A stretch of 64,000 nt of DNA from Candidatus Undinarchaeales archaeon (GCA_030753015.1 JASMDC010000015.1:8988-72987); one strand, 5' to 3'. Positions 21,973 through 52,631 are shown, numbered from the stretch's first letter. Program-made: numbers and translations. Notes: generated by a model not told the origin, from the letters alone.

Positions 21973-23313
21973 ATGGCCGAGGACGCCCTCTTCACCATCG
22001 AGAACACACGCACCGGCGAGCGCTACCCAGCCACCTCCGAGCGATACACCGGCGACAATGGCGAGAAGCTGCGCTGCGCCTTCGACTACGAGCGCATCAC
22101 CCTCACCCGCGACATCATCGACCAGCGGCGCCACCACACAACCGACTCTTTCCAGGTGTACAAGGAGCTAATGCCCGTCTTCCCCGACGAACCGCTGGTG
22201 GCCCCTAAGTTCGGCCCCACACCGTTCGAGCACGCCAAGAAGCTTTCCAAGAAGCTCGGAGTCGAGGTGTTCATCAAGTACCCCATGTACTACGTCACCG
22301 GCTCCCACAAGCCCTACCACCTCGTCCCGGCCGCCAACTACACCACCCAGGTCCGCCGACGGAACGGCGACAAGCGGCCCATCGTGTTCGCCAACTACTC
22401 CTGCGGCAATGCCGGCGACGCAGCGTCGTACGTGGCAAACCTCTTCGGCCTCCCCATCAAGGTGTTCCTCCTGGGCTCGGCCGACCACGAGCGCACAGCG
22501 CCATTGACCATGCGGGGCTCGGAGGTGTACAGCGTCTCCTGGGACGAGCGCGTGACCGGGGACCCGTCCTACTACATGTTCAAGGAGGCCGTGCGTCGGG
22601 GCGCCATCCCGCTCGCGTGCGCCGGTCCCGACAATTTCGGTGTCGTGGAGGGCGGCAAGGTGATGTTCCTTGAGGCCATGGAGCAGTCCGGCTGGCGCGG
22701 GTTCGATCACGCCTTCGTCCAGGTGGGCGGAGGGCTGCTGGCCAATGCCTTCCTCAACGCCTACGACGATGCACTTGCGCTGGGCCTGCTCCCGCAGGAG
22801 TCGGTACCTGCCTTCCACACGGTCCAGACCGAGGCCTGCTATCCGCTCCGGCTCGCCTACCAGCGAGTGATGGAGACCAACCCGCGGACGAACAAGGACG
22901 TGACCTGCTTGGTGTGTGACCGACGCGAGGAGATGCTCAAACCCTGGGAGGCCAAGGAGGAGCCCGAGAGCGTGGCCCACGGCATCCTGGACGTGGAGAC
23001 CTACGAGGGCGCCGAGCTCATCGCCGGGATGTACCGCACCGGCGGGAAGGCCCTTATCGTGTGCGAGGACGAGCTCATGGACGCCTGGCGGCTGGGAGCG
23101 CGGGCCACGGGCCACTTCGCCTCGCCAACCGGCACCTCCGGCCTTGCAGGGCTGCTTCGCGCTATCGACGAGGGGATCGTGGACAAGGGTGAGAGCGTGC
23201 TGCTCACGTTCACCGGTATCGGTCAGAAGCAGCTCTCAACGACCAAAGAGGTCGCCGAACCCGTCAAGGTGAACCCCGTGGACGATATAGAACGGGCGAT
23301 GCAGGGGCTGTAG
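21973..23313 (+). CDS. PLP-dependent fold-type II enzyme, threonine synthase-like
   Basis: GPTP, TGSHK (PLP lysine), SCGNAG, QVGGG, SVAHGI, TSGLAGL and FTG motifs. Confidence 0.85.
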   Translation: MAEDALFTIENTRTGERYPATSERYTGDNGEKLRCAFDYERITLTRDIIDQRRHHTTDSFQVYKELMPVFPDEPLVAPKFGPTPFEHAKKLSKKLGVEVFIKYPMYYVTGSHKPYHLVPAANYTTQVRRRNGDKRPIVFANYSCGNAGDAASYVANLFGLPIKVFLLGSADHERTAPLTMRGSEVYSVSWDERVTGDPSYYMFKEAVRRGAIPLACAGPDNFGVVEGGKVMFLEAMEQSGWRGFDHAFVQVGGGLLANAFLNAYDDALALGLLPQESVPAFHTVQTEACYPLRLAYQRVMETNPRTNKDVTCLVCDRREEMLKPWEAKEEPESVAHGILDVETYEGAELIAGMYRTGGKALIVCEDELMDAWRLGARATGHFASPTGTSGLAGLLRAIDEGIVDKGESVLLTFTGIGQKQLSTTKEVAEPVKVNPVDDIERAMQGL

Positions 23314-37784: not shown

Positions 37785-39510
37785 CCCGCTCTTGACAGTT
37801 CGTTCTTGAAACCCTCGTTTTGATAAGCAAAGAAGCGACTTCCATCCCAACGATCTCCATGTCTAAGGGAAGAGGTAAGTCATCCGGCACAGAAGTCGAG
37901 TACGGCAGCGTCCGTGCCTTATGGGAGATCATAGAGCGTACCCGCCTCATCGAGATTCTCAATAACGCCGCCCCCAAGCGCAACGGCATCCCAGTGGGCG
38001 AGCTCACAGTCCTCATGGCCATCAACCGCTGCCTCGATCCCCAGGCCAAATGGACTATCCCCGAGTGGTACGAGCGGACCTACCTCCCCGAGCTCCTCGG
38101 CATCGATCTCCCTGCGTCGAGCGGCTACCAGACGCTGACGCGTTGCCTTGACTACCTGACCGACCCCGTCCAGGCGGACGTCGAGATGGCGCTCTGCGGC
38201 CGTGTGATGGAGGCCTATCACCTCAAGCCGCGCATGTTCCTGTACGACCTGACCTCGACCTTCGTGGAGGGCGAGGGGGCCGCCCCGATCCTCCAGTACG
38301 GGTACAGCCGTGACCACCGTCCCGACCGCAAGCAGGTCAACTACGCGCTGTGCGTGACTGCGCCCGAGGGCGTTCCCATGTTCCATGAGGCGTTCCCAGG
38401 CAACCAGGTGGACTCCAAGACCGTGAAGGAAACGATGGAGCGCTTTCAGGACCGCCACGGCCTCGACGGGTGCCTTGTAGTGGACCGTGGGATCGTCACC
38501 TACAAGAACGTCGAGGAGATCGTGGACGTTCGCGGTCTCGACCTCGTTGGCGGGATGAGGATGAACAACGGCCTCGCCCGCCGCGTGCGGGCGGTGCCTC
38601 TCGACGACTACGACGAGCCGTTCAAGCGTGGAAAGGAAGTGCTGCAGGCGTACGAGCTGCCGCTGACGATCCGCAAAGTGGAGCGACGGTGCATCCTCTA
38701 CTACAGCGCGGAGAAGGCCGGGCGCGACTACAAGACAAGGATGGCCCACCTCGTGAAGGTCGAGGCAGGGATCAAGAAGCTGGCCGAGTCGCTCCGTAGG
38801 AGCGGGCGTGGCCGCAGGCCGACACCCGCGGGGATCGCCGGGAAGATCGACCGGCTCCTTGAGGAGAAGAAGTGCCAGGGGCTGATCACGTGGCGTTTCG
38901 TCGGCGGCCGCGGCGGCCGCCGGCTCAAGTGGGAGCGCGACGAGGCAGCCATACGGGACAGGGAACTGATGGATGGGAAGTACGTTCTCATCACCACGCT
39001 GGACCTGTCGCCGAAGGAGATCCTCGAGACCTACCGCGGCCGCGACACAGTGGAGCGTGCCTTTCGCATCACGAAACAGTCCATCCGCATACGGCCCATC
39101 TGGAACAGGAAGGAGCAGCACATCAGGGCACACCTCTTCATCTGCTTCCTGGCATACCTGCTCATGAGCCTCCTCAAGCTCGACCTGAAGGAGGTGGAGG
39201 TCGACCTCACTCCCGTGAAGGCGCTCAAGAGGATGGGGTATGTTACGGAATGGGTGCCGCGGACGATCCAGGCCGAGGGGGGACAGGATGTCCTTGGAAG
39301 GCTCATGCAGAAGCGTCGTTAGCCCTCGAGGCTAACACCGGCATCCCCCAATGACAATCGCGAGCGGAAGCTCTCATCATTATGCTCGATGATAGGCGAT
39401 CCAATGGATGATGACATCAATATGGGCACGTTTTGTTGGTGATCGTGAGGGAAAATGAGTAATCGAACTCACCTCAATCACGAATCTAATTATGAAATGT
39501 CAAGGGCGGG
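37785..39510 (+). mobile_element. IS1634-family insertion sequence
   Basis: TIRs CCCGCTCTTGACA (37785-37797) and TGTCAAGGGCGGG (39498-39510) match 12/13; 6-bp TSD TTGCCA at 37779-37784 and 39511-39516. Confidence 0.93.
37859..39322 (+). CDS. IS1634-family transposase
   Basis: YDLTSTFVEG, YGYSRDHRPDRKQV, FPGNQVD, VDRG, DGKYVLIT, YRGRDTVERAFR and RPIW...IRAH motifs. Confidence 0.93.
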   Translation: MSKGRGKSSGTEVEYGSVRALWEIIERTRLIEILNNAAPKRNGIPVGELTVLMAINRCLDPQAKWTIPEWYERTYLPELLGIDLPASSGYQTLTRCLDYLTDPVQADVEMALCGRVMEAYHLKPRMFLYDLTSTFVEGEGAAPILQYGYSRDHRPDRKQVNYALCVTAPEGVPMFHEAFPGNQVDSKTVKETMERFQDRHGLDGCLVVDRGIVTYKNVEEIVDVRGLDLVGGMRMNNGLARRVRAVPLDDYDEPFKRGKEVLQAYELPLTIRKVERRCILYYSAEKAGRDYKTRMAHLVKVEAGIKKLAESLRRSGRGRRPTPAGIAGKIDRLLEEKKCQGLITWRFVGGRGGRRLKWERDEAAIRDRELMDGKYVLITTLDLSPKEILETYRGRDTVERAFRITKQSIRIRPIWNRKEQHIRAHLFICFLAYLLMSLLKLDLKEVEVDLTPVKALKRMGYVTEWVPRTIQAEGGQDVLGRLMQKRR

Positions 39511-42325: not shown

Positions 42326-43864
42326 ATGCGGGGCGTAATCAGCTCGGGGCATCCGGTCACATCCGAGGCGGGTGCGAGCGTGCTGCGCAAGGGAGGGACC
42401 GCCGTCGACGCGGCACTTGCAGCGTCCGCTGTGAGCGGAGTTACCGAGCCCGGCCTCACCAGTCTTGGGGGGGGAGGTCTTGCCGTCATCCACGAGGGAG
42501 ACAGCGGCCGCAACCGGGTCTTCGACTTCTTTGCAGACATGCCCGGCCTGGAAGGTGACGGTCCGGACCCCTCCAGTTTCAAGGAGCTGGTCGTTGACTA
42601 TGAGGGTGCGCTGGAGACGTACCTGGTCGGCATGGGAACGGCAGCGCTCCCGGGCGTGCTCCCGGGTATCCTGTACATCCACGAGGAGATGGGCACGCTC
42701 CCTCTGGCAGACGTCCTTGCCCCGGCGATACGGGTCGCGCGCGATGGGGTCGTGCTCAGCGCGTTCCAGGCCAGATGCAACTACCTGTTCCGGGACCTTC
42801 TGGGCATGGGCCTGGAAAGCCGGAAGGTCTTTTTCAGGGACGGGGTGATGCTAAAGGAGGGCGAGCTCTTCACGAACCCCAATGTGGCACGGCTGCTCTC
42901 GAAGTTCGGATCAGGCGACTGGAGGCAGACGCTGGAAAACGAGTTCTACTCGCCCATCGTCAAGCACATGGAGGAGATATCCGGCCCCATCACACCTGCC
43001 GACCTCGAGCACTACACACCCATCGAGCGCTGTCCTCTGGAGATATCGTGCATGGGCTTCGACCTGCTCACACCGCCCCCCCCGTCCACCGGTGGCCTCA
43101 GGATCGCCTTTCTGCTCAAGCTTTTAGAGCGCAACGAGCTTGCGGGCATGGACCGGACGGGCCCGGAGTACGTCGAGCTGCTCGCACAATGTCAGGCATC
43201 CACCGATGCCATGCGCAAGGGAGTTGTGGACGGCAACATCCACGACAAGAATCTTGCCGAAGAGGTGCTCTCGGAAGGCTGCCTGGACCGCTTTACCGAC
43301 GATGCCATGGTCGTTGCACCGCCCCGGTCGGCGGGGAACACCACCCAGATATCGGTCACAGACGCAACGGGCACCGCCGTGTCGCTCACGACCACCACCG
43401 GCGAGAGCACGGGCTTCATGATCCCCGGCACCGGCGTGCTCTACAACAACATGCTGGGCGAGATCGACCTCAACCCCGACGGCTGCCGGGCGAACCCGGT
43501 CGGAAAAAGGCTCACGTCCTCCATGTCGCCTTCGGTGATGCTTGCTGACGGCGAGGTCATCGGCGTCATGGGGAGCGGTGGATCGAGCAGGATCATAAGT
43601 GCCATCGTGCAGGTGTCGCTCAACCACGCGGTGTTCGGCCTCGACGCGGCAACGTCCGTGGAGTCGCCCCGAGCGCACTACGAGGGCGGGGTGCTCCAGA
43701 TGGAGGCAGGCTTTCCTGCAGCCACCGTCCAGAAGCTGAAGCGCACCTTCGAGGTGAACGAGTGGGACCGTATCGACCGGTACTTCGGCGGCGTCCACAT
43801 GACCACGGGGCGTACGGGTGCCGGCGACACGCGCAGGAGCGGGCACTTCATGGCCGTGGAGTAG
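42326..43864 (+). CDS. ggt: Gamma-glutamyltransferase
   Basis: GGTAVDAA, SLGGGG, PPPSTGG, catalytic NTTQISV, NNMLGE, SSMSP and GSGG motifs. Confidence 0.93.
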   Translation: MRGVISSGHPVTSEAGASVLRKGGTAVDAALAASAVSGVTEPGLTSLGGGGLAVIHEGDSGRNRVFDFFADMPGLEGDGPDPSSFKELVVDYEGALETYLVGMGTAALPGVLPGILYIHEEMGTLPLADVLAPAIRVARDGVVLSAFQARCNYLFRDLLGMGLESRKVFFRDGVMLKEGELFTNPNVARLLSKFGSGDWRQTLENEFYSPIVKHMEEISGPITPADLEHYTPIERCPLEISCMGFDLLTPPPPSTGGLRIAFLLKLLERNELAGMDRTGPEYVELLAQCQASTDAMRKGVVDGNIHDKNLAEEVLSEGCLDRFTDDAMVVAPPRSAGNTTQISVTDATGTAVSLTTTTGESTGFMIPGTGVLYNNMLGEIDLNPDGCRANPVGKRLTSSMSPSVMLADGEVIGVMGSGGSSRIISAIVQVSLNHAVFGLDAATSVESPRAHYEGGVLQMEAGFPAATVQKLKRTFEVNEWDRIDRYFGGVHMTTGRTGAGDTRRSGHFMAVE

Positions 43865-44029
43865 GGCAGGGGACGGCCTCACTTTCGCATACCTGGGGCT
43901 TCAGGGGCGATGGACGAACGACGGCTGATCCGTCATCGCTCCAAAGATACACCATCTTGCGCCCGAGGGGCTCGTCATGGCGAGGTGACCGGGCCTATTT
44001 AATTGTTAGACACGTGAATTTCATGCTTC

Positions 44030-45835
44030 ATGGCACCACGGATCCGACAAGGTCAAGTTAATAAAAAAATACAATTTCAAAAGAGGATCCAAGGTGATGA
44101 GAATTCTAGTCCGGTGAAAGGCACCGATCATTATGTAGTCGCTCTGTTCTTTGTGTTATCACTGGTCTTTGTCGGGCCCATTCTTAAGGGGCTGTACATG
44201 TATGGTATTCTCGACTGGGATCAACATTTCTTCTATCACGCGGTCCCAAGGGCCACCATCATCGAACATCACCAGTTCCCATTATGGAATCCGTACCATT
44301 GTGGTGGCAACATCCTTCTTGCCAATCCCCAATCATCCTTCTTGTCCCCGACATTCATCTTCGTCCTCCTTTTCGATGTGATACCGGGATTGAAAGTGAG
44401 GATCCTGATCCAGTACATGATCGGGTTGTACGGGATGTATATCCTGGCCCGATCGTTGGGTATGACCACTAATGGCAGCCTGTTATCCTCGAGCGTCTTT
44501 ATGCTCAACGGAGCGTACGCATCCAACATCGTGGTCGGCCATACCACTTTTCTTCCTGTGGTGTATATCCCCTGGGCCTTTCATTACTTACTGAGAGGGA
44601 TCGAGGACATCAGGTACATCCCTCTGTCCTCGATCGTCCTTTCCATCATGATCTTTGAGGGAGGTGTCTTTCCTTTCGTGTTCACATGCCTGTTCATGGG
44701 TGCGTTCTCGTTCTTCAAGGCGCTGCAACTCAAGAAGATAGCTCCTGCAGGAGCATTCGTCCTTGTCCTCTTTCTTACCTTCCTGCTAGCTTCCATCAAA
44801 TTCCTTCCCCTTATCGAGTTCACTTCTATGAATCCATTATCAAGGGACGTCGGTAGGGGGTATACTGTTGAGATACTGGTCAACGCACTGACCAATCCCG
44901 ACCTCAACACCGTCGATCTCAATTTGAAAGTATCGGACGACCAAGTAAATTACTGGATAGAATATTATGCGTATGTCGGCGCACTACCTTTGATACTCGG
45001 TATCTTTGGCGCATGCGTGATGCTGGGCTCAAGGTGGCCATTATTATTGACCACAGTTCTGTTCCTCATCCTCTCCTTTGGCTCGAACGAGACGCTGGAT
45101 CTCTGGGGCATGATCCATCCCTTGCCCATCTTGAGCAGCTTCCAGGTACCCAGCAGATGTATGATGATGGTCGTCTTTTCTCTGGCTCTCTACTCCGGCT
45201 GGGCGCTTTCTTGGTTAGAGGGGTACGGGGCCCATATGTTGGTGACGTGGGGAGTGCTGGTCTTTGTCATCATGGATCTGGTGCTCGTTAACGGCGCTTT
45301 GTTCGAACTGGGGTTCATTCGATATCCTCCTGCGATCCTTGGTCGTCGTAGTGATACCCTCGTTCAATGGAAGGGATGGGGACATTATGATTATTTCTTG
45401 ATGAACAAAGGCCTGGTCAACTGCTATGAACGGACGCATCTCCCGATACGTGCACTTCCAGCTCAGGACGAGCAGTATAGAGGAGAGGTCTACTACAACG
45501 GGTCCATCGGGAGACCGGAAGTCATCAGTATAACCCCGAACGAGCTACGTTACCGCGTGTCCGTCGATCGACCCACCAGACTGGTGGTCAATCAGAACTA
45601 TGATCCCGGCTGGTATAGCACGGGACATGATGTGGTATCTCATGATGGATTGATATCGATCGACCTCGATCCGGATGATGAGATCGTGACCCTCTCATAT
45701 CTACCGCGCTCCTTCCTCCTTGGCCAGCTGCTCTCGTTCCTTGGTCTCGTTCTTGCAGCCCTTGTGTATTATGATAGACTTCCCAATGGGGGGCTGGTGC
45801 TCGCCTCCAACGGCAGGCTCAACGACGGGATGTAG
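44030..45835 (+). CDS. YfhO-like GT-C membrane glycosyltransferase
   Basis: DWDQ, FPLWNPY.CGG..LLANPQS and NQNYDPGW motifs, multiple TMs; AT-richer than its flanks. Confidence 0.8.
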   Translation: MAPRIRQGQVNKKIQFQKRIQGDENSSPVKGTDHYVVALFFVLSLVFVGPILKGLYMYGILDWDQHFFYHAVPRATIIEHHQFPLWNPYHCGGNILLANPQSSFLSPTFIFVLLFDVIPGLKVRILIQYMIGLYGMYILARSLGMTTNGSLLSSSVFMLNGAYASNIVVGHTTFLPVVYIPWAFHYLLRGIEDIRYIPLSSIVLSIMIFEGGVFPFVFTCLFMGAFSFFKALQLKKIAPAGAFVLVLFLTFLLASIKFLPLIEFTSMNPLSRDVGRGYTVEILVNALTNPDLNTVDLNLKVSDDQVNYWIEYYAYVGALPLILGIFGACVMLGSRWPLLLTTVLFLILSFGSNETLDLWGMIHPLPILSSFQVPSRCMMMVVFSLALYSGWALSWLEGYGAHMLVTWGVLVFVIMDLVLVNGALFELGFIRYPPAILGRRSDTLVQWKGWGHYDYFLMNKGLVNCYERTHLPIRALPAQDEQYRGEVYYNGSIGRPEVISITPNELRYRVSVDRPTRLVVNQNYDPGWYSTGHDVVSHDGLISIDLDPDDEIVTLSYLPRSFLLGQLLSFLGLVLAALVYYDRLPNGGLVLASNGRLNDGM

Positions 45836-45971
45836 GCGCTTGAGCGACAGCAACTTACCGCAACGATCCGGGGGCTGCTGAGCTCTCCTCTCGTTCCCGA
45901 GGATGCCCCGGCCCAAGGGAAGCTATAAAACGTGAGTGAGGAAGCCGCGAGCATAGATCGGTGGTGTAACC

Positions 45972-46577
45972 GTGGAGATAGAATACGAAGGCGTCATCAG
46001 AACGGACGACATGATCCTCTTGGGAGTGCGACAGAAGGGTACCGGCCCCTACGAGACACAGATGACCGTCCCCGGGATGACATACGACCAAAAGACCGAT
46101 AAGGCCCTGGTCTCGATCGGTTCCAGGACCGACGACGGTGAGAGCGTTACGGGCATCATCCCCCAGCTCACCGGTCCCCTCGAGGGCTATGACCATGTCT
46201 CCATCGACCAGACCGTGGAGCTCGCATCGTACCATCCCGCCACCGGGCACATGGTCGGTCCCATGTACTGCTCGCTTGACGTGGAGACCGATCTGGCTGC
46301 GTCAGGGAATGGGGACGGATACGTCGCTCTCGCCCGGGAGCCTGCTCAGATGGATACCGTTCTCCAGGCGCTCACCATGGAGGGCATCATCCCCGACGAT
46401 GTCGTCACCGCATATGGCACGCTCATGGACGATCCCACCGAGGGCAACTACCTGAAGCTGCTCCACCAGATCGAGGTCAACAAGGATGACATCGCCCTAG
46501 CACGTCTCCACATAGAGTGGTACATAGATGATGGGGACATCACGGACCTTGGCTTCGCACCCGGAGACCTCTCCTAG
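45972..46577 (+). CDS. Hypothetical acidic protein
   Basis: ORF with CTATAAAA upstream; no motif recognised. Confidence 0.65.
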   Translation: MEIEYEGVIRTDDMILLGVRQKGTGPYETQMTVPGMTYDQKTDKALVSIGSRTDDGESVTGIIPQLTGPLEGYDHVSIDQTVELASYHPATGHMVGPMYCSLDVETDLAASGNGDGYVALAREPAQMDTVLQALTMEGIIPDDVVTAYGTLMDDPTEGNYLKLLHQIEVNKDDIALARLHIEWYIDDGDITDLGFAPGDLS

Positions 46578-46609
46578 GTCCGCTTTGAGCATAGGATCTG
46601 TTGCCCGTG

Positions 46610-46698
46610 CATCGGAAGTCTGACAAGATCATCGGCGTCAACGTCCTGGCCCCGGGGCGTCCGACCTGGTACACGAGGGTGCCATTATGGATTCGTGA
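46610..46698 (+). pseudogene. Fragment of a pyridine nucleotide-disulfide oxidoreductase dimerisation domain (MerA/Lpd-like)
   Basis: KSDKIIGVNVLAPG, then ASDLVHEGAI in a shifted frame; ends just before repeat c1. Confidence 0.55.
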
Positions 46699-46703
46699 TA
46701 CGA

Positions 46704-46718
46704 GTGCGCCGGTCGGGA
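46704..46718 (-). repeat. tRNA-Gly 3'-end-like repeat c1
   Basis: GTGCGCCGGTCGGGA; reverse complement TCCCGACCGGCGCAC. Confidence 0.8.
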
Positions 46719-46854
46719 ACAAAGCCCACATTCAGGGGCAAATGAGAACGGGAACGGTCGCGGGGGGGCGCACTCCGCTGGACCTTGACCAACGGGCCCC
46801 GGGCATTCGATCGATGGAATATGCATATATACTATAACCACCATTATACTAACT

Positions 46855-48087
46855 ATGATTATTGTTAGGGGGGAGGCAGAGGAGATCAAGAAGATACACA
46901 AGTGGTTGCTCGTGTACGGAAGGCGGAAGACGGGCAAGACCTTCCTCCTCAGGAACCTCACGGACTACGACGAGTACTACTTCGTGAAAAGGGACAGGGG
47001 GATACTCACCGACTCAGGTGCCCTCTCGTACGAGACCTTCCTGGAGCTGTTCAAGCGCCAGCTCAACGACGGAGGGACGGTGATCGTGGACGAGTTCCAC
47101 CGCCTGGGCGAAGGGTTCCAGGATATCCTCCACTTCCTTCCGAAGAAGGGGAAAGTGATACTCGTATCGTCCACGCTGCACCTATCGAGGAAGCTGGTGG
47201 GATCGCACTCCCCCCTGCTCGGTGTGGTCGCCGAGTTCCAAATGCCGCTCCTGCGACTCTTCGACGTGCTGAGCTCCCTGCACGGTGATGGTCTCTCCAA
47301 GAAGGAGCTCGTCGAGACTGCCGTGCTCCTGCGCGAGCCCATAACCATCGACCATTACACACCTGGCGAGGGAGCTGTATCCACGTTCACGAGGGTGATG
47401 ACGAGCACGAAGTACCTCGTACCGGCGCTCATCGGCGAGATATTCACAGAGGAGGACCGCTCCCTCTCAGCGGTCTACGAGGGCGTCCTGCGTGCTATAG
47501 CCGGCGGGAAGTGCGTATCGAGCGAGATATCGAGCTTCCTCTTCTCGCACGGACTGATCAAGAAGGACGATCCCAGCCTCCTCCAGCAGTACCTCAACAA
47601 TCTCGTGTCGTTCGGCCTCCTGAAGCGGTTGAAGGTGTACAACAAGCGGCGTTACGTCTACATGCATACCTCGCCGCTGGTCTATCTCTACTTCTACGCT
47701 GACGAGAAGTACAACCTCTCCGAGATCGAGGCTGGACCCGAGGTGATCTCCCGCATCATCGCCGAGCTCTATCCGCGCATCATCGAGGGAGCGGTGCGCG
47801 AGCTCTTGGCCGAGCACTTCGGGCTGGTGGAGTCCGTCGTCCGGGAGAAGGATTTTGACATCGACGCCTACCTGCTGCGGTTCAAGACGCCCGAAGTGGC
47901 CGTGGAGGTCAAGTGGAAGGACAAGGTCTCATCCAAGGACGTGCGCAAGGCCGAGGATACCCTGTCACGCGTCGAAGCGAAGCGCAGGATCCTGTTCGTC
48001 CCGGACAAGAAAAAGGTCGAGTGCGGGAGCGACCTCGAGATCATGGACGTAGGCGACGTGCTGCAGGGACGTGCTTCTGCGGAGTAG
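46855..48087 (+). CDS. Archaeal AAA ATPase (ATPase-wHTH-PD(D/E)xK type)
   Basis: Walker A YGRRKTGKT, Walker B IVDEFH and C-terminal DID...VEVKW. Confidence 0.88.
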   Translation: MIIVRGEAEEIKKIHKWLLVYGRRKTGKTFLLRNLTDYDEYYFVKRDRGILTDSGALSYETFLELFKRQLNDGGTVIVDEFHRLGEGFQDILHFLPKKGKVILVSSTLHLSRKLVGSHSPLLGVVAEFQMPLLRLFDVLSSLHGDGLSKKELVETAVLLREPITIDHYTPGEGAVSTFTRVMTSTKYLVPALIGEIFTEEDRSLSAVYEGVLRAIAGGKCVSSEISSFLFSHGLIKKDDPSLLQQYLNNLVSFGLLKRLKVYNKRRYVYMHTSPLVYLYFYADEKYNLSEIEAGPEVISRIIAELYPRIIEGAVRELLAEHFGLVESVVREKDFDIDAYLLRFKTPEVAVEVKWKDKVSSKDVRKAEDTLSRVEAKRRILFVPDKKKVECGSDLEIMDVGDVLQGRASAE

Positions 48088-48100
48088 ATTCATAACAAAA

Positions 48101-48121
48101 GTGCGCCGGTAGGGACCCGAG
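48101..48121 (-). repeat. tRNA-Gly 3'-end-like repeat c2
   Basis: GTGCGCCGGTAGGGACCCGAG (one mismatch to the consensus). Confidence 0.75.
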
Positions 48122-48264
48122 CGCGCATCAGGGGCACTCATCCTGTGCATACGCACGTAGAACAAGCGTATGGACTATGATCGGAACAGATATCGCCCGA
48201 GCGGACCTGTCGGAGATATACTTTTATTGACTTGGTTCGATCCACCGTACAGAGCGTGATTACC

Positions 48265-49680
48265 ATGGTATCCCCGTCCACCAAGATCGGCGACCTCATC
48301 GAGGAGCATCCCTTCCTTGTCGACTTCCTGCCCACCCTCTCTCCCCGGTACGAGGCCTTGCGCAGCCCCACCATGCGAGCCACTATGGGAAAGGTGGCCA
48401 CCGTAGAGATGGCCGCCAAGATGGGAGGACTGGAGGTGGACGAGCTTGTCACCGCCATCGAGAGCGAGATCGCCCGACACGTCGAGGGCGACGCGTCCGC
48501 CCCGACCGAAGAGGAGCTTGCGCGACGCAAGGAGGTCCTCAAGGGCATCATCCGCGACATCCACGCGGGCGCCGACATCGAGGAGCTTAAGGTCCGGTTC
48601 GCCTCCCTCATCAAGGGCGTGGGCCCTGCTGAGATCTCGGCCGTGGAGCAGGCGCTCATCGCCGATGGCATGCCCGCAGAGGAGATCAAGCGCCTGTGCG
48701 ACGTCCACGTGGAGGTGTTCAAGAGCTCGCTCGAGATGAAGAAGCCACCATCCACCCCGCCAGGCCACCCGGTCCACACCTACATGCAGGAGAACCAGGC
48801 AAGTGCCGACATCATGCGCAAGATCGTAGATCGATTGGAGGGCCTGGAGGACGCGCTACCCGAGGTCAAGGGCCTTCTCGACGAGCTGGCCAAGATCGAC
48901 ATCCACTACACCCGAAAGGAGAACCAGCTCTTCCCCGCCCTCGAGCGCCACGGTATCACGGGGCCCTCGCAGGTCATGTGGGCCATCCACGACGATATCA
49001 GGGCGCTGGTGAAACAGGTGCGGGAGGCACTGGATGGCGAGGACGTCGCAAGCGCCGCCACCCTCCTCCGGGACCTTGTTGGGACCATCGGCGACATGGT
49101 CTACAAGGAGGAGCACATCCTCTACCCGGCTGCGCTGGAAGCCCTGACGGAGGAGGACTGGGTGCGCGTGCGGCAGGGCGAGGAGGAGATCGGGTACGCA
49201 TGGGTGACACCTGCGGCCCCCTGGCCACCCGAGGGGACCGAGGTAGCGGTCTCTTCTGAAGGGACCTCGGCCCTCTCCATGGACACCGGGGCGCTCACCC
49301 ACGAGCAGCTCAACCTCCTGCTCAAGCACCTTCCCTTCGACGTGACCTTCGTGAGCGAGAACGACGAGGTGCTGTACTACTCGGACACTCCAGAGCGGAT
49401 CTTCCCCCGGTCGGCAGGGGTCATCGGGCGAAAGGTGCAGAACTGCCACCCGCCCAAGAGCGTCCACGCAGTCACTCGCATCCTGGACGAGTTCAGGGCC
49501 GGGACGCGGGACGTCGCCGAGTTCTGGATCCATCTCCACGGAAAGTTCCTCTACATCCGGTACTTCGCCGTGCGCGACGGTAAGGGCACCTATCGCGGAT
49601 GCCTCGAGGTCATGCAGGAGATATCCCGCATCTCCAAACTCGAAGGGGACAAGCGGCTGCTGGACGACAGCACTGCCTAG
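48265..49680 (+). CDS. DUF438/DUF1858 hemerythrin-PAS protein
   Basis: LCDVH, GHPVHT, HYTRKENQLFP, VMWAIHD, KEEHILYP and GRKVQNCHPPKS motifs. Confidence 0.9.
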   Translation: MVSPSTKIGDLIEEHPFLVDFLPTLSPRYEALRSPTMRATMGKVATVEMAAKMGGLEVDELVTAIESEIARHVEGDASAPTEEELARRKEVLKGIIRDIHAGADIEELKVRFASLIKGVGPAEISAVEQALIADGMPAEEIKRLCDVHVEVFKSSLEMKKPPSTPPGHPVHTYMQENQASADIMRKIVDRLEGLEDALPEVKGLLDELAKIDIHYTRKENQLFPALERHGITGPSQVMWAIHDDIRALVKQVREALDGEDVASAATLLRDLVGTIGDMVYKEEHILYPAALEALTEEDWVRVRQGEEEIGYAWVTPAAPWPPEGTEVAVSSEGTSALSMDTGALTHEQLNLLLKHLPFDVTFVSENDEVLYYSDTPERIFPRSAGVIGRKVQNCHPPKSVHAVTRILDEFRAGTRDVAEFWIHLHGKFLYIRYFAVRDGKGTYRGCLEVMQEISRISKLEGDKRLLDDSTA

Positions 49681-49714
49681 GACGGAAGGTACCAGAGACG
49701 TTTCGCAAGAGACA

Positions 49715-49799
49715 GGTGCGCCGGTCGGGACCCGTTCTCGTGTACGAACAGGCACAGAACGCCAGATGACCTTTTGGGACATCCTTAAAAGATCGGACC
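49715..49799 (-). repeat. tRNA-Gly 3'-end-like repeat c3 plus conserved arm shared with c5
   Basis: GGTGCGCCGGTCGGGACCCGTTCT...ACAGGC.C.GAACGCCAGATGACC.TTTGGGA.AT..TTAAAAGA.CGGACC. Confidence 0.85.
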
Positions 49800-49883
49800 G
49801 CAGAGGCCTTCAAGTATGTCGAGAAAGGGCACAAGAAGGGAAGTGTCGTTATGACCGTGGTGGATGATGACAAGGGATCATAG
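49794..49883 (+). pseudogene. C-terminal remnant of an MDR-family NAD(P)-dependent alcohol dehydrogenase
   Basis: TAEAFKYVEKGHKKGSVVMTV...* matches the family C-terminus AEA.RYVE.GHKKG.VVI. Confidence 0.7.
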
Positions 49884-49939
49884 GTACGTAATTTAGTTTC
49901 ATGGCACTTAATAGCCAACAAGCGACATAGCTCACATGG

Positions 49940-50578
49940 GTGAACAAAACGGATGAACTATCTGCAAGATGCAAGAACGAGATACACACCTTTTTCGGCC
50001 TGGCCGTCGTTAATCTTGTGATCGCTGCATTGATCCTGGCCTTCGGGATATCTACAGGTGTCACGCGGCTCATGGCCTTTTCCAGGTCAGGAGAGATCGA
50101 ACTGATGTCCCTATTATTGATCGGTGCGGGCCTTGCTGCAGCAATTGCTGGACTGTATTGGCTGGTAAAGACCGCCGAGATCCTCGAAGGTGTCGAAAAG
50201 ATCGACTCGGACTGGGAAAAGATCACACAACATGACGATCAGGAACAGGTCACGGGTGTTCTTGTTCAAATGATAGCTCATTATCGAAAGAACCAGCCGG
50301 TCATCGACAGAATGACCGTTCTTGGACGGATAGTCGGGATCCTTTTCCTTGTTTCCGGATCTCTGAGCCTGCTGGATTCGGGAAGGACACTGCTTGCATC
50401 CGGCATGGTCAATGAAGGCATGTTCCAGCTTGCAGGTGCCATAGCGGTATTTAGCGTTGGGATCGGAAGTCTTCTCATCGCAAGATACTTCGAACGGTAT
50501 TCCGGGATCTGGGTCGTCCGACTAAAGGAAGAAGATAACATCCAGGAAGCGCTCACCGAACTGTTGGAGGCCAGCTAA
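49940..50578 (+). CDS. Hypothetical 4-TM membrane protein
   Basis: Two pairs of TM helices; coupled to the downstream wHTH gene. Confidence 0.75.
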   Translation: MNKTDELSARCKNEIHTFFGLAVVNLVIAALILAFGISTGVTRLMAFSRSGEIELMSLLLIGAGLAAAIAGLYWLVKTAEILEGVEKIDSDWEKITQHDDQEQVTGVLVQMIAHYRKNQPVIDRMTVLGRIVGILFLVSGSLSLLDSGRTLLASGMVNEGMFQLAGAIAVFSVGIGSLLIARYFERYSGIWVVRLKEEDNIQEALTELLEAS

Positions 50579-50579
50579 C

Positions 50580-50855
50580 GTGAAAGGGCGACGTACCAAT
50601 TACGAGATCTATTGGGAGATCCTGGTCTTCTGCCGTGAACCCAGATCGTTCACCAGTATTATCAATCGTTGCGATCTGAACTCAAAGATCGGGCAGCAGC
50701 ATATCCAGTTCCTCACGGACAAGAAGTTCCTTTCGATCGAGACCCTCGAGAAGAAGAGATCGTACACCACTACAGAACAAGCTCACGAATATATCAGCCT
50801 TTTTTCACAACTATATCGAAAGATGTATGACAGTGCCCCGGAATTCAAACTGTGA
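50580..50855 (+). CDS. Archaeal winged-helix regulator (HTH_45-like)
   Basis: RRTNYEIYWEIL...TSIINRCDLN...YTTTE pattern. Confidence 0.82.
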   Translation: MKGRRTNYEIYWEILVFCREPRSFTSIINRCDLNSKIGQQHIQFLTDKKFLSIETLEKKRSYTTTEQAHEYISLFSQLYRKMYDSAPEFKL

Positions 50856-50896
50856 ATGCTCGCTAAGGACCCGTTAGCATACGATCAACATGAGAA

Positions 50897-50913
50897 TGGT
50901 GCGCCGGTCGGGG
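50897..50913 (-). repeat. tRNA-Gly 3'-end-like repeat c4, including the CCA complement
   Basis: TGGTGCGCCGGTCGGGG. Confidence 0.8.
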
Positions 50914-51237
50914 ACACAACCTTTATAGGTTCGTGAGGTCTCGCCATCCATTGTCCTAACGGACCTGTTGTGGGGACATTGCCGGCCTTCGCTGGATTGA
51001 ACACCAGTGTCTCCACAACTGCTTTCCCCCATCCTTGCATATAATCCCACCAGCGAAGGCTGCGGATCGATAGAAGGGATGCCGATCCTACAAGATTCCC
51101 TGCTGTTGAGCAAGATAACGAGGGGCGTCTCCAGTATCCCATATCCCCCTGTTCATCGATAGGACCTGCCTACGGGATGTGGATCGAACCCTTTGCCACC
51201 CACCGTATTTTCCTTGAGCGAACACCGAGAGAAGGGA

Positions 51238-51328
51238 TGGTGCGCCGGTCGGGACCTGGACCCGTTCTTTTTTCTGACAGGCCCTGAACGCCAGATGACC
51301 GTTTGGGATATTGTTAAAAGAACGGACC
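51238..51328 (-). repeat. tRNA-Gly 3'-end-like repeat c5 (CCA plus T-arm geometry) with conserved arm
   Basis: The minus strand reads CGGG-TCCAGGT-CCCGA-CCGGCGC-A-CCA; the adjoining about 70 nt aligns with c3. Confidence 0.85.
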
Positions 51329-51349
51329 ATCGACTCTGGACGGATGATC

Positions 51350-52081
51350 ATGAAAGCCATCCTGCACACAAGATACGGACCTGCCGACGAGCTTGAGCTC
51401 ACAGAGGTCCCCAGACCGGTCCCCGGGGACAACGAGGTCTCGATCAAGGTGCATGCGACGGCAGTGACGACGGGCGACTGCAACGTCCGGAACCTCACGT
51501 TCGCGCCCAGAGATTTCAAGATCCCTGTGCGGTTGTTCCTGGGGATAAGAACACCTCGGATCAAGATACTTGGGAACGAGGTGGCCGGAGTGATCGAGGC
51601 CGTCGGCAAGGACGTCACGCGGTTCGCGGTCGGTGACAAGGTCTTCGGGACCCCCGGCGCTGCCATGGGCGCCCATGCCGAGTACCTGTGCATGCCCGAG
51701 GACGGAGTGCTGGCGATAAGACCTGACCCGATGAGCTGGGAGGAGGCCGAGGTAGTCATCGCCGAGCACGACGGTGCGCCCGTCGGGTTCGCCCTCTTCT
51801 TCCATAACTACTCGACGTTCCTGGGACGGCACGGCATCTACATCGAGGACCTGTACGTCCGGCCCGAGCATCGAGGGAAGGGGTGCGGGAAACAGCTGCT
51901 CGCCCATCTTGCCGACCTTGCCGTCGAGCGGGGGTGCGGGCGATTGGAGTGGTGGGTCCTCGACGTCAACCGGCCTGCCATCGACTTCTACGGGTCTCTG
52001 GGAGCGCAGGCGATGGACGAGTGGACCGTGTACAGGCTGACCGGAAAGGAGCTGGGGCGGCTGGCCGCAGGCGGGCGGTGA
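51350..52081 (+). CDS. In-frame chimera: MDR alcohol dehydrogenase N-domain fused to a GNAT (diamine acetyltransferase-like) C-half
   Basis: MKAILHTRYG...GAHAEYLCMPE...MSWEEA switches at about 51747 to EVVIAE...FFHNYSTFLGRHGIYIEDLYVRPEHRGKG...LEWWVLD.N.PAIDFY. Confidence 0.8.
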   Translation: MKAILHTRYGPADELELTEVPRPVPGDNEVSIKVHATAVTTGDCNVRNLTFAPRDFKIPVRLFLGIRTPRIKILGNEVAGVIEAVGKDVTRFAVGDKVFGTPGAAMGAHAEYLCMPEDGVLAIRPDPMSWEEAEVVIAEHDGAPVGFALFFHNYSTFLGRHGIYIEDLYVRPEHRGKGCGKQLLAHLADLAVERGCGRLEWWVLDVNRPAIDFYGSLGAQAMDEWTVYRLTGKELGRLAAGGR

Positions 52082-52088
52082 GCAGTCG

Positions 52089-52562
52089 CTACGAGAAGCT
52101 GCCGTACACCGTGATCGGCGTCGTCACGTTCTCGAACCCGCGGTCCTCCAGCGCTGCCGCCAGGTCGTGGAACGCCACCTCGTCCATCTTCGAGCTCCGG
52201 AACTCGACCGACACGTTCACCTTGTCAGAACTGAAGGTGCCGCCGCGCTCGTACCGGATGGTGCCATGAGCGACCGTGTGGATGTAATGGTCGTCCGGGG
52301 GATCGGCCGGCTCGAACTTGAAGTTCATGTAGATGGGATCGCGCTCGTCGTGGCCGACCTCCAGGTCGAGGCCCAGGTCCTTGTTGGCCAGCTCGAGAGC
52401 GAACTCGGCGTCACGGTAGCCCTTGTTGATCTCCTGCTCGTCCATGCCCTTGCCGAACAGGCCAAGGAACTTGCCTGCGTCCATGGTGAAGTCGGCGTAC
52501 CCGTCGCCGTGGATCATGTTGACGGCCTCGCCGCCGTACTCGGTGAGCGCGCAGTATCCCAT
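52089..52562 (-). CDS. Hypothetical acidic protein
   Basis: GC3-biased ORF with TTAAATA upstream on the minus strand. Confidence 0.7.
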   Translation of the reverse strand: MGYCALTEYGGEAVNMIHGDGYADFTMDAGKFLGLFGKGMDEQEINKGYRDAEFALELANKDLGLDLEVGHDERDPIYMNFKFEPADPPDDHYIHTVAHGTIRYERGGTFSSDKVNVSVEFRSSKMDEVAFHDLAAALEDRGFENVTTPITVYGSFS

Positions 52563-52631
52563 AAGATTACCGTCCTTACTGACCGCGCGCTGGATCCCGG
52601 TATTTAAGGTTTGCCCGGGGGTGACGGACGC

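Follow-up and report, generated by a model that had tools for sequence, protein, structure and literature searches.

Islands that grow by serial integration at tRNA genes are already well known, and several described systems come close to the array reported here, in which five co-oriented copies of a tRNA-Gly 3' end separate small gene modules in a 64,000-nucleotide stretch of DNA from a Candidatus Undinarchaeales archaeon (GCA_030753015.1, JASMDC010000015.1:8988-72987; the whole stretch is called the window). Streptococcal integrative and conjugative elements and integrative and mobilizable elements are described as decaying to att-flanked elements without an integrase (cis-mobilizable elements, CIMEs), followed by accretion (PMC5704250, citing Pavlovic et al. 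2004), and Prochlorococcus islands as holding tandem elements separated by partial tRNAs, with older partial tRNAs scattered among them (bioRxiv 10.1101/2020.12.28.424599). For archaea, integrase loss after integration ('gene capture') and tandem integration are reported (reviewed in PMC8371274; Thaumarchaeota survey, PMC6563490), as well as integrons and clusters of attC sites lacking integron integrases (CALINs), both based on attC (bioRxiv 10.1101/2022.02.06.479319). The repeats of the window are the 3' end of host tRNA-Gly genes, and they are probably scars of integrative elements.

Each system shares part of its build with the locus. As in CIMEs, direct repeats of a tRNA 3' end flank the units, recombination genes are lost or lacking while att sites are kept, and new units would add at an att copy to give tandem arrays. 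The differences from CIMEs are that the host is an archaeon, that the units are far smaller (0.3-2.4 kb, with one gene or operon each), that no resident integrase element lies alongside, that the window array has no intact target tRNA, and that mobility here is at most putative. With the tycheposons of Prochlorococcus the locus shares a marine host, partial tRNAs both between cargo elements and as traces of older insertions, and cargo of an adaptive or accessory kind; tycheposons, however, carry their own tyrosine recombinase and sit beside a full-length tRNA, neither of which was found here, and the domain of life and the arms differ as well. Integrated elements of archaea are alike in their integration into tRNA genes by tyrosine recombinases, in tandem re-use of sites and in the occurrence of integrase-less elements, but the smallest element cited from the Thaumarchaeota survey measures 2.6 kb and has an integrase (PMC6563490), whereas the 12 modules described here lack one and a conserved arm recurs across unrelated cargo. 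Integrons and CALINs resemble the locus in their co-oriented single-gene units, their short recurring site and a recombinase that may lie elsewhere, as in CALINs. They differ in that the site here is a tRNA 3' end and not a folded attC, that there is no intI or attI, that recombination here would be putative, and that each gene is preceded by its site at a distance sufficient for a promoter of its own. The literature searched, which did not extend to supplements, describes no archaeal arrays of integrase-less, single-gene, tRNA-flanked modules, and this is not proof of their absence. What is unusual is the combination of single-gene units without an integrase, one arm type with many cargoes, and an orphan tRNA fragment that seemingly went on accepting modules once its tRNA was lost.

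Repeat copies and their origin in tRNA-Gly genes

The genome from which the window was taken (G000) comprises 3.85 Mb on 117 contigs, the window being C24:8988-72987. The core motif was defined as the 15-mer GTGCGCCGGTCGGGA, and its copies were named c1-c5 in order along the window + strand. The motif itself lies on the + strand in 5/5 copies, so that the tRNA sense is on the - strand:

46704..46718, - strand (tRNA sense): c1 tRNA-Gly 3'-end core; 0 mismatches to the 15-mer, identity to the tRNA 3' end
48101..48115, - strand: c2 core; 1 mismatch; a diverged arm A follows at 48116-48160 (repeat family D1, 74%)
49716..49730, - strand: c3 core; 0 mismatches; right edge of the DNA absent from the close relative G001
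50899..50913, - strand: c4 core; 1 mismatch; CCA and TTCT beyond the core in tRNA sense
51240..51254, - strand: c5 core; 0 mismatches; T-arm-like extension to ~51266

All five copies are intergenic, between long open reading frames (ORFs), with core-to-core spacings of 1397, 1615, 1183 and 341 nt. Both the co-oriented intergenic copies and the spacings of about 1.4, 1.6, 1.2 and 0.3 kb given in an earlier note, made from the window sequence alone, were thus borne out. That note had also placed c1-c4 within about 45 nt of the preceding gene end, which is correct for c2, c3 and c4 (13, 35 and 43 nt from stop codon to core) but not for c1, which lies 126 nt past the end of a 201-aa ORF; c5 is not preceded by a gene. 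At ≤2 mismatches the window holds 7 matches against 0.62 expected, and 7 was reached in 0/100 shuffles. The matches at 22617 and 51774 (2 mismatches each) were rejected as further copies; they are unrelated, and that at 51774 lies inside the coding part of a GNAT gene and is native GNAT sequence in G001 too. A possible decayed core to the left of a 601-aa gene (~43975-43998) was dropped, with 10/15 positions matching by hand count.

ARAGORN identifies 36 tRNAs in G000, including intact tRNA-Gly genes for UCC, GCC and CCC, all outside the window, where it finds 0 tRNA genes. Its calls at C21:39278-39372 (a 95-nt tRNA with the four-base anticodon ccag) and C32:28602-28676 (tRNA-SeC) may be false. 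The genes for tRNA-Gly(UCC) (C11:93606-93683) and tRNA-Gly(GCC) (C22:42906-42982) both end in ...GGGTTCAAATCCCGACCGGCGCACCA, the reverse complement of the motif, and tRNA-Gly(CCC) has a different 3' end, so that 2/3 host tRNA-Gly genes match. Aligned with tRNA-Gly(UCC/GCC), the 16-mer core shows 0-1 mismatch in c1 and c3-c5, and for c2 the count is 2 mismatches across 15 nt. Reverse-complemented, c5 agrees with the tRNA-Gly(GCC) gene at 90% of 30 nt, a stretch that takes in the T-arm, and CCA is present in c4 and c5. The alignment therefore upheld both the tRNA-Gly 3'-end origin proposed in the note and the T-arm geometry it had read in c5.

Across G000, 35 core matches occur at ≤2 mismatches, and the 11 meaningful ones lie at four loci. 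They comprise the two tRNA genes, C11:92754 and C11:91265 (downstream of the UCC gene), C22:40534 (downstream of the GCC gene), C61:17094 and the 5 copies in the window; the three downstream copies are all on the tRNA strand. The remaining 24/35 matches are isolated and weak, one of them being tRNA-Glu. When ≤1 mismatch is allowed, the counts are 9 copies in G000, 5 in G001 and 0-2 in each of the other 15 genomes of the phylum (17 genomes in total), and reversed-pattern controls in the same count gave 0. The repeats are confined to few loci, both true motif-ending tRNA-Gly genes among them. This genome-wide count, with meaningful copies at only 4 loci, two of them at tRNA genes, rules out a dispersed repeat of the repetitive extragenic palindromic (REP) or miniature inverted-repeat transposable element (MITE) kind, one of three contrary cases named in the earlier note, none of which was borne out. 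A hidden tRNA, a split tRNA or a tRNA-like RNA was likewise rejected, with nothing found by ARAGORN, the Rfam scan or folds, among which only c4 with arm C beats shuffles. Over 43.5-53 kb, the tRNA-clan models of Rfam had no match at E ≤ 10, and the E-value scan produced only 3 irrelevant matches, all with E ≥ 4.5.

Arms beside the cores and sister arrays at true tRNA genes

A conserved sequence, the arm, adjoins the core on its tRNA-5' side:

46719..46790, - strand: arm A of c1; 87% over 62 nt to C11:92755-92816 (behind tRNA-Gly(UCC)) and 78% over 69 nt to C61
49731..49800, - strand: first copy of arm B, a duplicate of the sequence upstream of ADH; 79% identity with 51239-51328 across 91 aligned positions; families D3 and D4
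50914..51033, - strand: arm C, ~120 nt; single copy in G000; with c4 a unit 89% conserved in G001

Arm A (45-75 nt) is common to c1, c2, both C11 copies, C22 and C61, where six unrelated cargoes adjoin it, and its similarity ends at the core on the other side. It occurs only at the loci of the window, C11, C22 and C61, and in G000 arms B and C occur at the window locus only; the three arms are mutually unrelated in sequence. The proposal that arm A is the end of the insertion sequence (IS) beside tRNA-Gly(GCC) was ruled out, as that IS is single-copy in G000 and interrupts a small membrane-protein gene that is intact in G001. Arm B is carried by c3 and c5, which have ~85 further nt in common at 79-87% identity. 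The additional sequence shared by c3 and c5 and the motif shared by c1 and c2, both noted earlier, were confirmed, the latter as part of the arm. On a three-way alignment of the c3 and c5 sites with G001, c3 and c5 are a single site that was duplicated, the ADH upstream region.

Together, c4 and arm C (50899-51033) form a ~135-nt unit with a predicted fold of three hairpins, and both of its flanks differ in G001. The fold has z = -2.6, with 2/200 shuffles as stable, and the unit could be something other than a mere scar, such as a small RNA or a second recombination site. Of the 7 arm folds, the other 6, those of arms A and B with their cores, were no better than shuffles (z +0.04 to -1.6).

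Both true motif-ending tRNA-Gly genes, UCC and GCC, have the same arm and core in tandem downstream, with small modules between. Directly downstream of tRNA-Gly(UCC), an 838-bp module contains a HicB-HicA toxin-antitoxin pair (C11:92852-93453), and further cargo at these genes includes a CMAS-like methyltransferase and a small membrane-protein gene split by a DDE transposase, the latter gene being intact in G001 with a different flank. Contig C61 has an insertion of 3.4 kb (C61:13640-17215) that G001 lacks; its first 24 nt are a fragment of the tRNA-Gly T-arm, and arm A and a core form its other end. It contains an IS (DDE transposase) and a dihydrouridine synthase (Dus) gene, and is flanked by diverged direct repeats of ~75 bp from the 5' end of a ferredoxin-like gene.

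A control scan over all G000 tRNAs for extra 3'-end copies revealed comparable arrangements at other tRNA genes. Two more copies of the tRNA-Leu(UAG) 3' end lie at +2.7 kb and +11 kb (C31:17290-28450), each with an arm built like arm A (hairpin, GTGCGC, then T-loop end), and their cargo is a low-GC CPA2 antiporter followed by an 8.3-kb metabolic gene set, with no integrase. In G001, a copy of the tRNA-Leu arm sits beside an ABC transporter, that is, a different cargo. The tRNA-His gene has a 3'-end copy at 4.1 kb (C40:124200-128394), with a regulator, a NifB-like domain protein and a 419-aa ORF that resembles glutamate dehydrogenase by eye; the copy for tRNA-Ser(GCU) lies at 1.65 kb (C65:5607-7344), with a single AAA_14-DUF4143 ATPase gene between. 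The core-bounded modules of G000 number 12 (tRNA-Gly, Leu, His and Ser), and the cargo is antisense to the tRNA in 8/9 modules that hold a single gene or operon. AAA_14/DUF4143 ATPases were considered as a mobility gene and rejected, with 2/10 AAA_14 matches in core-bounded modules, too few for an association.

Cargo of the window array

The variable region of the window is laid out as follows:

42326..43864, + strand: gamma-glutamyltranspeptidase (GGT; Pfam PF01019, E 2.7e-80), the conserved left flank; 82% to G001 up to the stop codon
44030..46577, + strand: low-GC G000-specific segment, with genes for a polytopic membrane protein of 601 aa (44030-45835) and for a protein of 201 aa (45972-46577)
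46855..48087, + strand: cargo of module c1-c2, an AAA_14 ATPase (Pfam AAA_14, E 3e-07); no G001 match
48232..49680, + strand: cargo of module c2-c3, DUF1858-DUF438-hemerythrin-PAS_10 (Pfam); no G001 match at the locus
49791..49885, + strand: ADH C-terminal remnant, about the last 27 codons; 77% to the 3' end of the intact G001 ADH
49940..50855, + strand: cargo of module c3-c4, a 212-aa membrane protein and a 91-aa protein of the winged helix-turn-helix type (wHTH; HTH_45 / Sso10a-like)
51311..52081, + strand: ADH_N::GNAT fusion ORF, probable start ATG 51351; ADH_N at residues 39-136, Acetyltransf_1 at 143-231

The cargo named in the earlier note holds by Pfam, and the ADH C-terminal remnant by alignment to the intact ADH of G001. 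The C-terminal region of the c1-c2 ATPase is weakly Mrr-like (Mrr_cat E 0.006, below the cut-off). The low-GC segment has a GC content of 0.46-0.52, against 0.60 for the genome, with neither a G001 nucleotide match nor a core copy at its left edge, and its 601-aa and 201-aa proteins have no Pfam, PHROGs or NCBIfam match. Two paralogs of the 201-aa ORF, whose family has no database match, occur on the 5.9-kb contig C90 of G000 together with two tandem AAA_14 ATPase genes; that contig has no cores. The ADH::GNAT joint lies at an 8-nt microhomology between parent genes that are separate in G001. The motif-like site at 51774 was ruled out as the point of recombination, being native GNAT sequence. 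The ADH pieces and the ADH::GNAT fusion, as judged from the sequence comparison, come from deletions. About 4.5 kb to the left of the variable region, an IS4-type DDE transposase gene (37820-39322, 500 aa) lies beside an opposite-strand GNAT fragment.

Comparison with the close relative

G001 is the sole close relative available for comparison of the locus. Read in window orientation, its order is GGT, ~35 nt, a decayed core with arm B, an intact 308-aa ADH, 1.6 kb, a c4 homolog with arm C, 6 kb of other genes and a full GNAT. The c4 homolog has 1 mismatch, and its arm C is 89% identical. The sequence comparison indicates that c4 and the c3/c5 site are older than the split of G000 and G001. 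Window positions 43865-49715 have no match in G001, and homology resumes at c3 with arm B, so the AAA-ATPase and DUF438 modules and the low-GC segment are specific to G000. The right edge of this DNA is core c3, but its left edge, just after GGT, has no core. The earlier note had proposed looking among relatives for cassette gain, loss or reordering at the motif: the content of G001 differs and one breakpoint falls exactly on c3, but the other edge is without a core. Other indels are independent of the motif, and the flanks of c4 with arm C are variable (one relative compared). ARAGORN finds no tRNA at the syntenic loci of G001. Four contig ends in G001, on contigs C10, C27, C28 and C32, lie exactly on the tRNA-Gly core; because contigs break at the core, where the assembly graph collapses at the repeat, the linkage of modules to tRNA-Gly in G001 is ambiguous.

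The array in metagenomes

The stretch, or part of it, is present in 20/23 listed runs from 12 studies, nearly all of them marine or seawater. Four runs were examined in detail through contigs only, which drop rare variants, and parts left uncovered in X13 and X17, runs of low share, do not show that the sequence is missing there. In an independent study, one contig of 4595 nt covers 46440-51034 with 0 differences, and this identity indicates that the array is real and not an assembly artefact. No core-to-core excision joints were present among the contigs of the four runs. Loose contig ends at 46704 and 46747 belong to the C11 paralog. One deletion was identified in the population:

51034..52613, no strand: population-deleted segment of 1580 bp, comprising a spacer, c5, arm B copy 2, ADH_N::GNAT and a 157-aa ORF; joint 51033->52614

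The joint occurs in 3/4 runs (X4, X11 and X13), with no repeat at the junction. The left end of the deletion is the inner end of arm C, ≤6 nt from a breakpoint between G000 and G001, and in X4 the contig depth of the deletion allele is above that of the segment removed.

Recombinases and the search for a parent element

G000 has 5 matches to PF00589, on C31 (two), C76, C53 and C88, with none on C24, C11, C22 or C61, and they overlap 0/12 core-bounded modules. Twenty ORFs scanned at 36-58 kb of the window have no integrase domain; serine recombinases were not searched separately. The remark in the earlier note that neither an integrase nor a parent tRNA lies nearby agrees with the 0 tRNAs called in the window and with the lack of a PF00589 match on the contig, which also gives no intI or attI beside the array. 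No attC of relevance appeared in the Rfam scan, and the folds of arms A and B with their cores were not above shuffles; no dedicated attC finder was used.

Most of the G000 matches constitute a family resembling XerA and integron integrases, with two intact tandem genes at C31:2-2571, one with an internal TAG at C76:912-1991 and a fragment at C53:13576-13801. Its members have an N-terminal extension of 85-95 aa, the paralogs are 74-80% identical in DNA, and the single G001 homolog is at 65% identity. The two C31 recombinases pass the archaeal XerA model (238 and 225 bits, cut-off 220) and miss the integron-integrase model (234 and 220 bits, cut-off 265), and their paralogs behave likewise. In G001, classical integrases lie directly downstream of tRNA-Leu(GAG) and tRNA-Glu, and the attR of these two elements was looked for and not found. 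No integrase is linked to the tRNA-Gly core in G000 or G001, and inspection of the ORFs, with no Pfam scan of them, revealed none in the G001 counterpart of the island.

Pattern scans of viral, metagenome and genome collections, from which records of G000 or its near relatives may be excluded, gave no attP-bearing element. The attP/arm A counts were 22 bacterial stretches among genome contigs, judged to be at chance level for 18 specified bases, 0 and 0 in metagenomes, and 0 and 0 in viruses.

Origin of the array

We consider it likely that the repeats are attachment-site scars of integrative elements that targeted tRNA-Gly, accreted at a pseudo-att site that is now without a tRNA. What we infer of the mechanism of recombination, of the succession of events and of how integrases were lost is as follows. 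Each core would be a displaced copy of the end of a tRNA-Gly gene (the final 16-21 nt, or 30 nt in c5), left when a circular element with the same core (attP) recombined with a tRNA-Gly-type target via a tyrosine recombinase. In tRNA sense, a module would then read core, P' side, cargo gene (mostly antisense), element arm and next core, and the arm would be sequence that belongs to the element and adjoins the core on its tRNA-5' side. The founding fragment, the c3/c5 site upstream of ADH, would already have been without a tRNA in the ancestor of G000 and G001 and would have continued to serve as a secondary attB. The modules with the AAA-ATPase and DUF438 cargo, of the arm A type, may have been added at c3 after the split, or lost in the relative. 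Later, the ADH upstream region and its core would have been duplicated to give c3 and c5, and ADH cut into a C-terminal stub and an N-terminal half, the latter presumably fused to GNAT by microhomology. The modules would be non-autonomous, their integrase genes having been lost after insertion or never present on them. This origin as scars is favoured because there are no junction reads and no linked recombinase, and because the distal module ends are not conserved. It is further supported by the match of the cores to the 3' ends of two tRNA-Gly genes, by their distribution and the shared arm A, by the comparison with G001, by the recurrence of this layout at tRNA-Leu, tRNA-His and tRNA-Ser(GCU) of G000, by the classical tRNA-integrase pairs known in the genus from G001, by the identical contig of the independent study and by the published precedents.

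Several observations count against scars. An integrase or integrase remnant occurs in 0/12 G000 modules, where simple decay is expected to leave some. ARAGORN calls no intact tRNA-Gly at the locus in G000 or G001, and the start at an intact same-strand tRNA that characterizes tRNA-att arrays is absent from the window and present in the C11 and C22 sister arrays. The leftmost G000-specific DNA (43865-46703) has no core at its left edge, and therefore was at least not delivered by core recombination as the locus now stands. Between three cargo stop codons and the next core there are just 13-43 nt, a closer spacing than random deletion would leave. The membrane-protein module common to G000 C22 and G001 C28 is conserved over the gene and ~50 nt upstream, not to the cores, and an element bearing attP is absent from the viral, metagenome and genome collection scans.

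The earlier note had proposed very small cassettes mobilised in trans. As an active platform of the integron kind, this would mean that one-gene modules, each with an arm of 45-75 nt and a core, are inserted and excised at any core, tRNA-less fragments included, by a recombinase supplied in trans from the genome, a plasmid or a virus. Such an active platform is rather unlikely, and it is the alternative that survives best. It is favoured because there are no integrase remnants, the 12 core-bounded modules being free of all 5 PF00589 matches, because the units are compact and hold single genes, because arms are shared, and because c1 and c2 were apparently added at an orphan core without a tRNA. 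Modules hold one gene or operon in 0.3-2.4 kb (HicBA, a methyltransferase, two AAA_14 ATPases, DUF438, wHTH with a membrane protein); the antisense orientation in 8/9 single-gene or operon modules and the gene ends 13-43 nt from the next core point the same way, as do the one arm family with six unrelated cargoes, the tRNA-Leu arm of similar build and the expanded XerA/integron-integrase-like set (two intact in tandem, one pseudogene and one fragment). However, none of the joints in the contigs of four runs, which drop rare variants, falls on a core, an independent sample has the identical array, and cores and arms alike are without a linked recombinase; ongoing mobilisation in trans is therefore not supported. 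The C31 recombinases fall below the integron-integrase cut-off (234 and 220 against 265 bits) and fit XerA, the module ends away from the arm are not conserved, and c3/c5 is a plain duplication. That duplication, together with the age of c4 and the c3/c5 site, which predate the split from G001, does not support a reading as five independent cassettes, and several rearrangements of the island, among them the ADH::GNAT fusion and the 1580-bp population deletion, are unrelated to the motif. The note's term integron-like suits the layout only; no attC-like site or adjacent integron integrase was found.

In its broadest form, the cassette proposal would make the window part of an archaeal cassette system in which tRNA 3' ends (a 17-21-nt tRNA-Gly core with a 45-75-nt arm, and a sister tRNA-Leu arm) replace attC, a trans recombinase shuttles modules between true tRNA genes and orphan fragments, and orphan arrays grow without a tRNA. 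We regard such a system as unlikely; its recombinase could be one of the expanded XerA/integron-integrase-like paralogs or could come from an unbinned plasmid or virus.

Local spread would instead derive all copies from one old tRNA-Gly fragment, multiplied by segmental duplication or gene conversion, with the cargo acquired by unrelated means. The c3/c5 duplicates with ~85 nt of ADH upstream sequence fit this account, as do microhomology deletions in the island that are unrelated to the motif. It is nevertheless very unlikely, as the nearest match of the c1 arm is the copy that follows the true tRNA-Gly(UCC) gene on a different contig (87% identity across 62 nt) and not c3, c4 or c5, as arms A, B and C show no relation to one another, and as G001 retains c4 and the c3/c5 site separately. 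A cis element or small RNA, either a + strand transcript with 15-17 nt antisense to the tRNA-Gly 3' end or a - strand tRNA-like RNA acting in regulation or processing, would suit the intergenic, co-oriented copies and the fold of c4 with arm C (z = -2.6, conserved in G001), but is highly improbable given no ARAGORN match in the window, 3 irrelevant Rfam matches at E ≥ 4.5, 6/7 arm folds no better than shuffles (z +0.04 to -1.6), arms that differ between copies, and copies at true tRNA loci that fit att sites.

Significance

If the array consists of attachment-site scars only, it is a clean example of archaeal flexible islands that persist and rearrange after the integration machinery is gone, and it shows that the place of an old insertion can be marked by a tRNA fragment distant from any tRNA gene. 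If the modules have stayed mobile, they would represent a second answer, based on tRNAs, to the problem that integrons solve, the stockpiling of single genes, and this in a marine archaeon that is abundant.

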